DNA of 7,299 nt, taken from positions 1 through 7,299 of IMG/VR virus record IMGVR_UViG_2639763115_000004; one strand, given 5' to 3'. The notes beneath the pieces are model-generated. The model was not told the DNA's origin. It did not search any database and saw only the letters and a list, made by a program, of their open reading frames with translations. Shown here piece after piece: positions 125-7,299 of this stretch. The first letter of the stretch is position 1; every line of letters begins with the position of its first letter. Made by a program: the position numbers and the translations under genes. The stretch comes from a virus. Taxonomy: Duplodnaviria > Heunggongvirae > Uroviricota > Caudoviricetes.

Positions 125-946
125 TCATGCAATCCCCCTGTCTGCAAACTTCCCTTCCCGTACTCCCGTTAACGAATCTTCCCTCAGCAGGTAATCAAAA
201 TCAGCTGTCCAGCCAGTGTCGTTGTCTCCGAAGTAAAACGGCTTGGCCTGATGCACAAACGCCCTGACATACGCTCTGAAACCGTCCACGTTTGGCGTTT
301 TCAGTTGCGGGATGATTTTCTTCAGGCGGCGTTTGCGTTTCTCATTGACCGCAACAGCGTGTGGCAGTCTGTCACCGACTTCGGTGTTGTAGGCGTTCAG
401 GAAGGATTCGTAGTCGATTCGTTCTGCCTTGCGACGTTCAGGTTTAACCTGCCCATCGCCGACCCCGTTAGGGGGTAAGGGGGTATTTGTATTTATTGTC
501 TTTTGTATATTGTCTTTTGTGTTTAGCTGACTTGGCTTATACCCATTAGCCGACTTGGCTAATGTTTTATTAGCTGTTTTAGCTAATGTTAAGCTGTCCT
601 GGCTAATCCACTGCGAAACCACCTTGTTCACTCCGATTTTCACGCCATCAGCAATGAGGAATTTACGCTCAATAAGCTGGCGCTTGGCAGCGCAAACATG
701 AGTGTGATGAATACCTGTCATGGCTGCTATCTGCGTGTTTGTGAGTCGATCCATCGGCTTATTGAATCCGTATGTCTTGCGCATGATAGCGAGCATCACC
801 TTCAGCTGCCGGACGGTTAAATCAGCCATCAGCAGACTGTCGGTAATCTCGTTAGCAACGCGCATGAAACCATCTTCGGTATCTGCCACGCGATGCTCCA
901 CGACCTCCAGTTGAGGCCTGTAATCAGCTAACTTAACGACGCCCAT
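125..946 (-). CDS. Replication initiator protein, lambda O-like N-terminal domain with a different C-terminal domain
   Basis: 273-aa ORF; AGGAG 7 nt upstream of the ATG at 946; N-terminal segment [29 protein letters not shown] aligns with recalled lambda O (ADLTKRQFKVLLAILRKTYGWNKPMDRIT); repetitive linker [18 protein letters not shown] encoded by DNA iterons. Confidence 0.85.
481..610. repeat. Putative replication origin iterons inside the O-like gene
   Basis: Tandem direct repeats: attgtcttttgt at 495-506 and 509-520; agctgacttggct at 525-537 with near-copy agccgacttggct at 548-560; ggctaat/agctaatg copies at 557-609. AT-rich and located at the O interdomain linker as in lambda ori. Confidence 0.5.
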
Positions 947-1094
947 GTTTCACTCCTGCTTTGGCTAGTCTGTAAACACCAACAAGGCGCTCTGCGAACG
1001 CCCTGTTATTTGCTGCGGCTACCACTAATCCCTCAGGTGAATCAGGGTGTCGAATCTCTTCTTTTTCCTGGTATTTCTTACGACGTTTTGTCAT
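933..1094 (-). CDS. Small basic hypothetical protein (53 aa, [53 protein letters not shown]) between cII and O
   Basis: Not in the ORF track (under 60 aa); found by manual translation. AGGAG 6 nt upstream of the ATG at 1094; stop overlaps the O-like start by 14 nt in a different frame. Confidence 0.4.
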   Translation of the reverse strand: MTKRRKKYQEKEEIRHPDSPEGLVVAAANNRAFAERLVGVYRLAKAGVKHGRR

Positions 1095-1128
1095 AATTAC
1101 TCCTGTGGATTGATCCAGTCTTTCTACA

Positions 1129-1410
1129 TCAGGCCTCGAAGAATTCGCCGTTCTTCGGGGCTTTTTCTTTTGTCAGGTAATTGGCAAGCCGCTTAGTCAG
1201 CTCAGCCATTTCATCGTCTTCGATTCCGTATTCCAGAACAGCCAGCATCATGCTTACCTGCGAGAAGAAACCATTCTTCCATCGGCTTACCTGATATTCA
1301 GGAACCCCCATTGCTCGAGCGAATGTCTTCTGCCCCATCAGTGCCAGTTTGTTCAGCAAGGCTGACTCGATGCGAGCCGCTTTCTTGCTTTTAGTTGCAA
1401 TAGTACCCAT
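1129..1410 (-). CDS. cII: CII-like transcriptional activator of lysogeny
   Basis: 93-aa ORF; RIESALLNK...QVSRWK...SMMLAVLEYGIEDDEMA aligns with recalled lambda CII (RIESALLNK...QISRWK...SMLLAVLEWGVVDDDMA), roughly 40 percent identity by eye; TAAGGAAAT-type RBS before the ATG at 1410. Confidence 0.85.
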   Translation of the reverse strand: MGTIATKSKKAARIESALLNKLALMGQKTFARAMGVPEYQVSRWKNGFFSQVSMMLAVLEYGIEDDEMAELTKRLANYLTKEKAPKNGEFFEA

Positions 1411-3071: not shown

Positions 3072-3243
3072 AGCATTCAAAGCAGAAGGCTTTGGGGTGT
3101 GGTGAAGGGTTCATGGATGGGAATATGTCGCACGTAAAGCGGCGAGGCCTGCGGAACTATTGCCGAATTGAAGTCGGCCGAAGCAGGTCGAAATGGGTCT
3201 CCCACCTACCACACCACCAAAGCTAACTGACAGGAGAATCCAG

Positions 3244-3831
3244 ATGGATGCACAAACACGCCGCCGCGAACGTCGCGCAGAGAAACAGGCTCAATGGAAA
3301 GCAGCAAATCCCCTGTTGGTTGGGGTAAGCGCAAAACCAGTTACCGTGCTTGCGCTTCTTGATGAACTGGAAGCTCAAAGCAAACGCATTGCAGAGCTGG
3401 AGAAAAAAGCTGCACCAGATTCGTTTGGCATCATCGGTGAAAATATTCGAACACAGGATAATCGAATAACGTCAGACCCTATGTTTTGTGTGTATCAAAA
3501 GCGCGAAATCGTTGTTGATGCTGATTATGACTATGACCGGATTGTCTGGGTTGATGAAGATGGTAATGAAGCCAATAAACGCCAAAGTCGTCGTCTCGAA
3601 CTACTTCACGAAAACTTTCGAGAGCCACCAGAAAAATGGCGGCGCGTTGCTGTGAAAGATATTGATGAATTCGTTACCTGCTGTTTCACCGAACAGGGTT
3701 GTAAATACTACCTAGCAGCCAATGGTCACAATCTTCGCTTGCCATTTATATATGTAAAAAGCGGTTTCAGGAACGCTGAATATATCGGCATAAGAAACTG
3801 GCTTGCTGGCATTCGCATCAAAGGAGAGTGA
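3244..3831 (+). CDS. N-like protein: lambda N arginine-rich motif (residues 1-33) fused to an unrelated C-terminal region of about 160 aa
   Basis: AGGAG at 3232-3236 then ATG at 3244; MDAQTRRRERRAEKQAQWKAANPLLVGVSAKPV matches recalled lambda N, then diverges completely (TVLALLDELEAQSKRIAELEKK...). The ORF-track start at 3193 lacks an RBS and is rejected. Confidence 0.65.
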   Translation: MDAQTRRRERRAEKQAQWKAANPLLVGVSAKPVTVLALLDELEAQSKRIAELEKKAAPDSFGIIGENIRTQDNRITSDPMFCVYQKREIVVDADYDYDRIVWVDEDGNEANKRQSRRLELLHENFREPPEKWRRVAVKDIDEFVTCCFTEQGCKYYLAANGHNLRLPFIYVKSGFRNAEYIGIRNWLAGIRIKGE

Positions 3832-4106: not shown

Positions 4107-4703
4107 ATGACCACTATTACCAAAGAACGTATTGAATTGTTCATTAAAAATCCGCTTGAAAACGGACTTACCCGTGGCGAACAAATGGAACTGGCACGAA
4201 TTGCTCTGGCATCGCTGCAACGCGAACAGATTCGCCACGAGCATGCCAAATGGTCTGACTCCACATTTGGCTGCGTTGGCCCCATTGGTCCGCTGAAACA
4301 TCTCTCAAAAGAGGCACTGGAAGCCGCAGCCGAACCAGACGATCTTAGCGAGTGGGCTGATATGCAGTTTCTGTTGTGGGATGCACAGCGCCGTGCTGGC
4401 ATCAGCGATGCTGAAATTACCGCTGCTATGGAAGATAAATTGAAGATCAACATGGAGCGCCAGTGGCCTGAGCCAAAAGATGGTGAGCCTCGCTTGCACA
4501 TTAAAGAACCCGGCAACTCTCCGGTAATTCCGGATGGTTGGGTTATGGTGCCGAAGGAGTTAACCCCGGAAATGATGAGAGCCGTTCAGATTAGAAGTGA
4601 GCTTGGAGGGTATGCCACTTCCAATCTATCTGGTGCATACAATATGTTTTCTGAGTTCTGGAATGTTGCTGTCTCAGCTGCGCCTAAGGTGGATGATTTA
4701 TGA
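4107..4703 (+). CDS. Putative MazG-like nucleotide pyrophosphohydrolase (DUF550-like N-domain, DUF551-like C-terminal region)
   Basis: AAGGAG at 4095-4100; segment EALEAAAEPDDLSEWADMQFLLWDAQRRAGISDAEITAAMEDKLKINMERQW resembles the all-alpha MazG/NTP-PPase motif (EExxE ... ELGD-like ... KL.xNxxR). Confidence 0.55.
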   Translation: MTTITKERIELFIKNPLENGLTRGEQMELARIALASLQREQIRHEHAKWSDSTFGCVGPIGPLKHLSKEALEAAAEPDDLSEWADMQFLLWDAQRRAGISDAEITAAMEDKLKINMERQWPEPKDGEPRLHIKEPGNSPVIPDGWVMVPKELTPEMMRAVQIRSELGGYATSNLSGAYNMFSEFWNVAVSAAPKVDDL

Positions 4704-5002
4704 ATCTATATCGCTGCCCATTCTGTGGTTCCACTGTGCTTAACATCGGATACTCATTCAGTATCAGAGGGAAAATGCGCTATGTGTCATGCAAATGTGG
4801 TGCCCAAGGACCAGAAAAACGAACTAAATCTGAAGCGATTTCTTCATGGAATAGTCGAATGAAAGTATGGGTTTATGATCCAGAAACCATATTAAACGCT
4901 GAAGAGCGCAGGAGAACGGAAGTCTATATTCATAACCTTAATGAAGATGGATTTACACCAGTGCTTGTAAAGGCTACTCCGCAGGAGGTTAACCATGGCT
5001 AA
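4700..5002 (+). CDS. Lar-family putative restriction-alleviation (anti-restriction) protein with a C-terminal extension
   Basis: ATGA overlap with the upstream stop; N-terminus MNLYRCPFCGSTVL...CKCGAQGP...AISSWNSR has the CPFCG plus CxC plus A..WN.R signature I associate with Lar-family zinc-ribbon proteins. Confidence 0.55.
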   Translation: MNLYRCPFCGSTVLNIGYSFSIRGKMRYVSCKCGAQGPEKRTKSEAISSWNSRMKVWVYDPETILNAEERRRTEVYIHNLNEDGFTPVLVKATPQEVNHG

Positions 5003-5064
5003 CCTGCAACTTGCCGTCAAAGGTGAATAACAATCCTCGCACTCGCGGGGATTTCTTTTATCTG

Positions 5065-5090
5065 AACTCGCTACGGCGAGTTTTGTTTTA
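5065..5090 (+). terminator. Putative intrinsic terminator after the Lar-like gene
   Basis: Stem aactcgc (5065-5071), loop tacg, stem gcgagtt (5076-5082), then T-rich ttgtttta. Confidence 0.45.
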
Positions 5091-5327: not shown

Positions 5328-5528
5328 ATGCAACACGAACTACAGCCTGATTCACTGGTTGATTTGAAATTCATCATGGCCGATACTGGCTTCGGTAAAA
5401 CCTTCATCTACGACCGGATTAAGTCCGGCGACCTGCCAAAAGCCAAAGTTATCCACGGACGAGCAAGATGGTTATATCGTGACCATTGTGAATTCAAAAA
5501 TAAGCTCTTAAGCCGCGCTAATGGGTAA
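5328..5528 (+). CDS. torI: AlpA-family excisionase / recombination directionality factor (TorI-like, 66 aa)
   Basis: SLVDLKFIMADTGFGKTFIYDRIKSGDLPKAKVIHGRARWLY fits the AlpA/Xis winged-helix pattern; length and position next to an argW attR core fit KplE1 TorI as I recall it. GGAGA 8 nt upstream. Confidence 0.7.
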   Translation: MQHELQPDSLVDLKFIMADTGFGKTFIYDRIKSGDLPKAKVIHGRARWLYRDHCEFKNKLLSRANG

Positions 5529-6051: not shown

Positions 6052-7299
6052 CTATATTGCAGAAGGTACAGGCGTTTCCATCACCATTTGCTCACGCTTT
6101 TTACTCAGGAAGAAAATGCCAAATAACAACATCAGGCAGACAATACCCGAAATTACGAAGAAAACCGTCTGGTAACCTGCATGGTCAAAAAGTATTCCAG
6201 TCGGCGTTGAAAGCAACACAATCCCCAACGAACTAGCAATTTGAAAACCAATCAGAAAGATCGTCGACGACAGGCGCTTATCAAAGTTTGCCACGCTGTA
6301 TTTGAAGACGGAAATGACACACAGTGGAACCTCAATGGCATGTAACAGCTTCACTAATGAAATAATCCAGGGATTAACGAACAGTGCGCAGGAAAGAATA
6401 CGCAACGCCATAATCACAACACCGATAAGTAATGCATTTTTTGGCCCTACCCGGTTAACAAAGAAAGGAATAATGGCCATGCACAGCGCTTCGAGTACAA
6501 CCTGGAATGAGTTGAGATAACCATACAGGCGCGTTCCTACATCGTGTGATTCGAATAAACCTGCATAAAAAACAGGAAAGAGCTGTTGATCAAAAATGTT
6601 ATAGAAAGACCACGTCCCCACAATAAATATGACGAAAATCCAGAAGTTTCGATCCTTGAAAACTGCAATAAAATCCTCTTTTTTTACCCCTCCCGCATCT
6701 GCCGCTACGCACTGCTGATCCTGATATTTAAAACGCATGTTGATCATCATAAATACAGCGCCAAATAGCGAAACCAACCAGAAGTTGATATGGGGACTGA
6801 TACTGAAAAATATGCCAGCAAAGAACGCGCCAATCGCATAGCCAAAAGATCCCCAGGCGCGCGCTGTTCCATATTCGAAATGAAAATTTCGTGCCATTTT
6901 TTCGGTGAAGCTATCAAGCAGACCGCAGCCCGCCAGATACCCCAAGCCAAAAAAGAGCGCCCCCAAAATTAGACCTACAGAAAAATTGCTTTGCAGTAAC
7001 GGTTCATAAACGTAAATCATAAACGGTCCGGTCAAGACCAGGATGAAACTCATACACCAGATAAGCGGTTTCTTCAGACCGAGTTTATCCTGGACGATGC
7101 CGTAGACCATCATAAATAGAATACTGGTAAACTGGTTGACCGAATAAAGTGTACCTAATTCCGTCCCAGTCAACCCTAGATGTCCTTTCAGCCAAATAGC
7201 GTATAACGACCACCACAGCGACCAGGAAATAAAAAAGAGAAATGAGTAACTGGATGCAAAACGATAGTACACATTTCTGAATGGTATATTCAGTGCCAT
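6052..7299 (-). CDS. cscB: Sucrose:H+ symporter, LacY-family MFS oligosaccharide permease (CscB-like, 415 aa)
   Basis: Complete 415-aa ORF with its start codon at the window edge; multi-TM hydrophobic protein whose N-terminus MALNIPFRNVYYRFASSYSFLFFISWSLWW and length match CscB as I recall it; clear LacY-family similarity. Confidence 0.8.
   Translation of the reverse strand: MALNIPFRNVYYRFASSYSFLFFISWSLWWSLYAIWLKGHLGLTGTELGTLYSVNQFTSILFMMVYGIVQDKLGLKKPLIWCMSFILVLTGPFMIYVYEPLLQSNFSVGLILGALFFGLGYLAGCGLLDSFTEKMARNFHFEYGTARAWGSFGYAIGAFFAGIFFSISPHINFWLVSLFGAVFMMINMRFKYQDQQCVAADAGGVKKEDFIAVFKDRNFWIFVIFIVGTWSFYNIFDQQLFPVFYAGLFESHDVGTRLYGYLNSFQVVLEALCMAIIPFFVNRVGPKNALLIGVVIMALRILSCALFVNPWIISLVKLLHAIEVPLCVISVFKYSVANFDKRLSSTIFLIGFQIASSLGIVLLSTPTGILFDHAGYQTVFFVISGIVCLMLLFGIFFLSKKREQMVMETPVPSAI

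Follow-up and report, generated by a model that had tools for sequence, protein, structure and literature searches.

The 53-codon open reading frame (ORF) at minus-strand positions 933 to 1094 of the window (i.e., the whole 7,299-nucleotide stretch of viral DNA analyzed here) is, judged by its substitution pattern among relatives, a genuine protein-coding gene under purifying selection. It is already known as HK97 gp53, annotated since 2000, and it carries little weight as a discovery, being annotated in the HK97 genome record and present as the 'orf' slot in the lambdoid literature. A modest new point is that this slot, located between cII and the replication initiator gene, pairs near-exclusively with phage-encoded helicases, an association that we consider suggestive. 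Strong purifying selection on a very common 53-amino-acid (aa) 'hypothetical protein' also makes the gene one that merits experiment.

The ORF starts at an ATG (1092-1094), with the Shine-Dalgarno (SD) motif AGGAG (1100..1104) lying 5 nt ahead of it, and ends with a TAA (933-935), as the sequence-only reading had described it. With 79 ORFs of 30 aa or longer in the window, a length of 53 codons is not by itself beyond chance, and it is conservation that lifts this ORF above that level. A search of 5.8 billion proteins returned 68 relatives, all of which are short, unnamed, and from Enterobacterales, and the exact 53-aa sequence is carried by at least 1,000 contigs. A scan of one genome per species identified 17 loci with 57 to 100% aa identity, from genera comprising Edwardsiella, Trabulsiella, Yokenella, Enterobacter, Citrobacter, Chimaeribacter, Serratia, Rahnella, and Brenneria. 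In 17 of 17 genome loci, a frame of 52 to 55 codons is intact and begins with an ATG and an SD-like site, the latter being of the GGAG/GAGG type at the equivalent place (n = 17). Two of the loci lie on contigs labeled as other bacteria, namely, a 'Bacillota bacterium MAG' contig (L003; 100% aa identity) and a 'Chryseobacterium sp.' contig (L006; 83% aa identity, helicase gene missing); both carry an enterobacterial prophage region and are probably contaminated or misbinned.

The sequence-only reading had proposed that the frame be followed through related prophages for frameshifts and stops. The frame is intact, with 0 stops across 16 homologues compared with 11 to 55 in each of the other five frames, and the indels among homologues are in-frame only. 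The median dN/dS (Nei-Gojobori, NG86) is 0.17, or 0.16 without the final 12 codons, where the ORF overlaps the ribosome-binding site (RBS) and start of the initiator gene; synonymous sites are saturated, with a dS of >1 in most pairs. Column entropy in the alignment is 0.56, 0.39, and 1.21 at the first, second, and third codon positions, respectively. With its intact frame and a dN/dS of about 0.16, the ORF thus qualifies as a real gene even at a size below the 60-aa threshold of the ORF list from which it had been missing. Occasional decay is exemplified by one of 44 gp53-type copies in IMG/VR, in which a frameshift leaves 22 aa (MTKRRKKYQEKKRFDTLIHLRD).

The description of the ORF as unannotated holds solely for that 60-aa list, and public records do annotate the gene (HK97 gp53, Sf6 gp42, and ES18 gp58). 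The window protein is 100% identical over 53 aa to HK97 gp53 (AAF31131.1; tblastn), the coding sequence of which lies at 29720..29881 of the HK97 genome. It is likewise 100% identical to the Sf6 gene 42 protein, annotated as 'Phage HK97 53 protein homolog,' to the 53-aa mEp213_055, and to a 'conserved hypothetical protein' of several Stx-converting phages, including Stx2 phage 1717. ES18 gp58 is 94% identical at the protein level, and ST104 ORF27 represents the same stretch with 98.9% nucleotide identity. In HK97, Sf6, ES18, and mEp213, the ORF lies between cII/oop and the initiator with a 14-nt overlap, as it does in the window, and the window gene shows no difference of substance from its HK97 gp53 kin other than its location in a deleted, defective prophage. 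In RefSeq, the protein appears as a 'hypothetical protein' in 948 of 5,426 complete Escherichia coli genomes (approximately 17%), so that the reach of gp53 covers about a sixth of these genomes in addition to Stx-converting phages. The protein matches PHROG 1331 (phrog_1331; E = 1.4e-37, residues 1 to 53 on profile positions 1 to 53 of 53), a family labeled 'unknown function.' The layout 'cII - oop - orf - O - P' and the lack of the orf in lambda were described by Hayes et al. in 2012, whose alignment takes as position 1 the ATG of lambda O, P22 orf48, or the HK97 gp53 homologue (PMC3349717). Our literature search for a function of HK97 gp53 or P22 orf48 found none, and in the literature found, orf48 appears merely as a passenger in constructs.

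The protein is very basic, as the sequence-only reading had noted, with 14 Lys and Arg versus 6 Asp and Glu residues, a pI of 10.7, and a net charge of about +8. An AlphaFold2 model based on a 31-sequence alignment (pLDDT of 67.9, i.e., moderate confidence) predicts an unstructured, Lys/Arg-rich segment at residues 1 to 19, followed by helices at residues 20 to 29 and 31 to 46. The invariant or nearly invariant residues of the helical part are L23, A27, N30, F33, A34, E35, R36, G39, R42, and A44, and a second conserved cluster forms the motif P-D-S-P-x-G. Scans of the protein against Pfam (E values of up to 1), NCBIfam, and PADLOC assigned it to no family, and neither a PDB sequence profile search nor a Foldseek comparison of the model with the PDB (0 matches) returned a match. 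A profile search of 1.84 billion representatives yielded just 24 relatives, all of them short, with no longer homologue that was informative. A helix-turn-helix, ribbon-helix-helix, or bZIP-like fold was thus matched in none of the Pfam, PDB sequence, and Foldseek comparisons, and high positive charge alone is not diagnostic of the nucleic acid binding that the sequence-only reading had proposed.

The neighbors of the ORF are those that the sequence-only reading had named. Upstream lies a cII-like transcriptional activator gene (1129..1410, minus strand; 93 aa; Phage_CII, 7.6e-30; phrog_191), and downstream lies a gene for an O-like origin-binding replication initiator of the HK97 gp54 type (125..946, minus strand; 273 aa; Phage_rep_O, 5.8e-33; phrog_345, 9.3e-105). 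The last codons of the small ORF run into the initiator start in another frame, as had also been noted, and the TAA lies within the first 14 nt of the O-like gene. This dual-coding overlap (ATGGGCGTCGTTAA; 933..946, minus strand) encodes both the small-ORF end (..GRR*) and the initiator start (MGVV..). The initiator has its own SD, an AGGAG at 953..957 (minus strand), which is located inside the small ORF, 6 nt ahead of the initiator ATG (944-946), and is conserved in all loci as CAGGAG, CGGGGG, or CAGGGG. The overlap measures 14 nt in 16 of 18 sequences (the window, HK97, and 14 of 16 genome loci) and 17 nt in two Rahnella loci. The initiators of all loci belong to phrog_345, and their start lies within the small ORF in every locus, whether the N-terminal domain is Phage_rep_O or DnaD-like. 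The upstream gene varies: it is mostly Phage_CII, but two loci (L008 and L015) have a YdaT-like gene there, and a third (L005) has one with an ANT domain.

A long-range helix within the small ORF that would hide the initiator SD, as the fold of the window sequence had suggested, was considered and rejected as a conserved structure. Across 16 homologues, 64.6% of its cells are paired, and covariation is nearly absent, a single sequence showing compensation at a single pair, so that obligatory translational coupling of the two genes is left unproven by this helix. A separate observation concerns the first approximately 10 residues of the initiator (917-946, minus strand; loci L002 to L019), which are conserved across initiators with differing N-terminal DNA-binding domains. 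Flynn et al. are said to have defined, in 2003, an N-terminal class of ClpX recognition signals on lambda O, and the conserved initiator N terminus presumably resembles this class. This peptide could be a shared degron, or it could simply be part of a mobile small-ORF cassette.

The start of the ORF coincides with a 33-bp lambdoid 'boundary sequence' (ACTGGATCAATCCACAGGAGTAATTATGACAAA; 1087..1119, read on both strands), which matches the published consensus ACTGGATCaATCcACAGGAGTaATTATGaCAAA (PMC3349717) exactly, with 0 such matches expected by chance. Read on the minus strand, this block spans the RBS and ATG and runs five bases further, into codon 3 (second position); the plus strand has the -10 element of pO and the 5' end of an OOP-like RNA. 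The first codons of the small ORF therefore overlap pO. The candidate pO promoter has the extended -10 element TGtCATAAT (1089..1097, plus strand), antisense to the small-ORF start codon, and direct reading shows the plus-strand letters TTTGTCATAAT to be the same in lambda. Hexamers resembling TATAAT, TAGAAT, or TAAAAT occur at the equivalent site in most homologous loci, and a two-hexamer promoter scan did not pick up the candidate. The predicted OOP-like antisense RNA (1105..1172, plus strand; approximately 68 nt), proposed on its homology to lambda oop, would stop within the 3' end of cII at an intrinsic terminator, which consists of a 14-bp stem (1131-1163) and a T-run (MFE of -27.2, z score of -4.99). 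Most homologous loci, and lambda as well, have an equivalent hairpin whose stem differs in sequence, and one locus (L018) has no recognizable oop terminator. The strand opposite the small-ORF start thus corresponds, by homology and terminator prediction, to the lambdoid pO/oop unit with its predicted transcript. In the annotations of related phages, the Sf6 record names the block 'bsq5; boundary sequence,' and the P22 record places the oop promoter over the orf48 start. The OOP of Salmonella prophage BTP1 has been detected by RNA-seq (PMC7067206). An Rfam scan of the whole window gave no matching family for oop. That scan also returned a weak Leu_leader match at 5027-5085 (minus strand; 20.8 bits versus a gathering score of 50, E = 0.98), which is a GC-rich, terminator-like hairpin with a T-run and most likely represents chance similarity or a plain terminator.

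Comparison with lambda shows what the slot adds. In a local alignment, 30 of the 33 bases of the window block, which also holds the RBS and ATGACAAA, are shared with the pO/oop/gene O start of lambda. In lambda, the boundary ATG directly opens the 299-aa O protein, whereas in the window it opens the 53-aa ORF, and the window initiator starts 149 nt further on with an N terminus that differs from the MTNTAKILNF of lambda O. Just 32 nt separate cII from O in lambda, so that the sequence-only reading was right in stating that lambda has no such ORF there.

The gene that follows the initiator tends to differ between loci with and without the small ORF. A DnaB-like helicase gene is found after the initiator in 16 of the 17 genome loci. 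We also surveyed 119 IMG/VR contigs with the boundary sequence, in which the boundary ATG opens (i) a 53-aa gp53-type ORF (43 contigs and the one frameshifted copy), (ii) a 48-aa P22 orf48-type ORF (27 contigs), or (iii) a lambda-type O directly (about 41 contigs). Partners were counted solely in contigs with enough downstream DNA. The gp53 type is followed by a phage helicase in 35 of 36 cases (32 DnaB-like helicases and 3 ES18-type primase-helicases), behind four initiator types, and the orf48 type is followed by one in 21 of 21 cases (13 DnaB-like and 8 primase-helicases). Contigs with no small ORF have lambda P at this place (37 of 38). For initiators of the ES18 type, an identity of 94% to lambda O residues 17-148 has been reported in the N-terminal region. 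Taken together, 56 of 57 such contigs with a small ORF of either type also encode a phage helicase. The contigs are redundant, and a single exact DNA pattern served to select them, so the association is suggestive and not proven.

Orf48 of P22 and HK022 (PF10872, DUF2740) takes the place of gp53, starts at the boundary-sequence ATG, and ends inside the initiator start, with an 8-nt overlap in P22. At 48 aa and a pI of 10.4, P22 orf48 is like gp53 in size and charge. The two share common initiator and helicase types, and both occur almost only with phage-encoded helicases. Homology between them was rejected, given that BLASTP produced no alignment and hhalign a probability of 0.6%, and the window ORF matched no Pfam family, PF10872 (DUF2740) included, at E values of up to 1. 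By these comparisons, P22 orf48 is a positional analogue of gp53 and not a homologue. The RefSeq product name of P22 orf48 (L021, 1350-1496), 'tail protein,' looks like an annotation error.

Between the two roles that the sequence-only reading had suggested, i.e., modulation of replication initiation and modulation of cII, gene context favors replication: the overlap with the initiator start is constant, the upstream gene may be CII, YdaT, or ANT, and the small ORF co-occurs with phage-encoded helicases. The small ORF is physically the first cistron of a replication block comprising the small ORF, an origin-binding initiator, and a phage-encoded helicase, and such a block is common to many lambdoid phages and prophages of Enterobacterales. 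It would be transcribed rightward from pR, after cII. Ribosomes ending the small ORF would terminate on the start region of the initiator, so that the two proteins would probably be translated together, even though an AGGAG of its own precedes the initiator. As the product, gp53 would then act as a nonenzymatic accessory factor of replication initiation where the module brings its own helicase. Its possible targets would include the nucleic acid of the origin, a generic host or helicase-loading component, and the conserved peptide at the N terminus of the initiator. A specific, variable phage partner is unlikely, since gp53 copies that are nearly the same occur with four types of initiator and two classes of helicase. 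We therefore arrive, with evenly balanced confidence, at a reading from gene order and sequence conservation in which gp53 may be a small, basic protein, transcribed from pR and cotranslated with the initiator, that assists replication initiation in own-helicase modules, with a generic target being the likelier one. Two caveats apply to this role. The helicase association may reflect linkage inherited from a few ancestral modules and not a functional need, and the unrelated DUF2740 gene in the same slot also fits a recombination hot spot with arbitrary accessory genes.

The second caveat leads to the main alternative, which we regard as possible though doubtful, namely, that gp53 is a functional accessory gene at a recombination junction with no part in replication (e.g., a host-takeover, antidefense, or exclusion protein). 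It would stay beside the initiator only because the boundary sequence and the overlapping start make the slot a handy landing place that is cotranscribed. Such a gene is consistent with the alternation of the unrelated gp53-type and DUF2740/orf48 families before the same initiator and helicase types, as well as with the location of the slot start at an annotated mosaic boundary. The sequence of gp53 shows no covariation with initiator or helicase subtype, which also speaks against a specific phage partner, and lambda replicates without any gene of this kind. However, the initiator start is overlapped in every locus and gp53 was not found with lambda P modules in the contigs surveyed. The pR operon is, moreover, repressed in lysogens, unlike the typical accessory genes that are expressed in the lysogen. 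The protein had no PADLOC match either, which bears on defense genes, as the PADLOC library is without antidefense genes.

A stronger form of the replication role would make gp53 and DUF2740/orf48 nonhomologous functional analogues that own-helicase lambdoid modules specifically require, which strikes us as improbable. The two would serve as helicase-loading or origin-remodeling cofactors for phage DnaB-like helicases or primase-helicases, as lambda P and host DnaC do for host DnaB. If true, this cofactor reading would explain why the small ORF is missing from lambda O-P modules. Should the association itself hold, it would offer a testable handle on how P22/HK97-type modules load their own helicases, a process known in far less detail than the lambda O-P-DnaB pathway.

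It is less probable still, and in our estimate quite unlikely, that gp53 modulates the lysis-lysogeny decision together with cII and OOP, whether by binding OOP RNA or cII mRNA or by protecting or destabilizing CII in the manner of lambda CIII. The ORF does adjoin cII and start on the 5' block of pO/oop, and its Arg/Lys-rich N terminus is reminiscent of RNA-binding peptides, as far as the residues themselves can suggest. However, the overlap with the initiator is constant, whereas the gene upstream is YdaT-like or ANT-domain encoding in the three loci mentioned above, and the locus without a recognizable oop terminator retains the ORF. Pfam at E values of up to 1 moreover gave no family for the 53-aa protein, including none like lambda CIII among small regulators.

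The least probable account, in which the act of translation alone matters (i.e., a leader cistron that feeds ribosomes to the initiator or shields the mRNA, with the peptide irrelevant, or in its limit a chance frame held by overlapping DNA and RNA signals), would draw on the 14-nt overlap, the initiator SD inside the ORF, a strongly structured mRNA in the window (z score of -3.97), and the overlap of pO with the first codons, but it is largely refuted by the dN/dS of about 0.16, i.e., by strong purifying selection on amino acids with saturated synonymous sites over the entire ORF, also where neither pO nor the initiator RBS overlaps it, and by mRNA structure that is unconserved past one 8-bp hairpin. 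This hairpin (GGGCGTTC GCA GAGCGCCT; 985-1003, minus strand) spans codons 31 to 37 of the small ORF (R-A-F-A-E-R-L). Across 16 homologues, its pairing reaches 96.9%, and two of its pairs show compensatory changes. It could be a genuine RNA element, or the pairing could simply follow from conservation of the FAER codons.

In the window itself, the gene resides in a prophage that appears to be defective. The gene after O (1-128) starts with MRQD, as does the HK97 helicase gp55, and then diverges, with a stop after 39 codons. The helicase sequence breaks off after four codons, where a tailspike fragment joins it, and bases 1 to 122 share 97.5% identity with a 'phage tailspike protein' gene. The stretch from helicase to tailspike thus appears to have been lost. 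No complete E. coli genome matches the window over its full length, the maximum coverage being 66%. A second internal deletion is suggested by an ORF at 3241-3828 (plus strand), in which the arginine-rich peptide of lambda N (Pfam N36, 9e-24, aa 3 to 34) is followed by Ead/Ea22-like sequence, such that N appears fused to an early-left gene. The repressor and cro genes appear intact. Since the window is the remnant of a deleted prophage, the small ORF is probably a silent passenger here. The remaining content includes a dATP/dGTP pyrophosphohydrolase-family gene (4107-4700), a Lar restriction-alleviation gene (4700-4999), and a 66-aa ORF with no Pfam match (5328-5528), which we take to be TorI/excisionase-like. 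A cscB-like gene for a sucrose/oligosaccharide MFS transporter (6052-7299, minus strand) marks the chromosomal flank.
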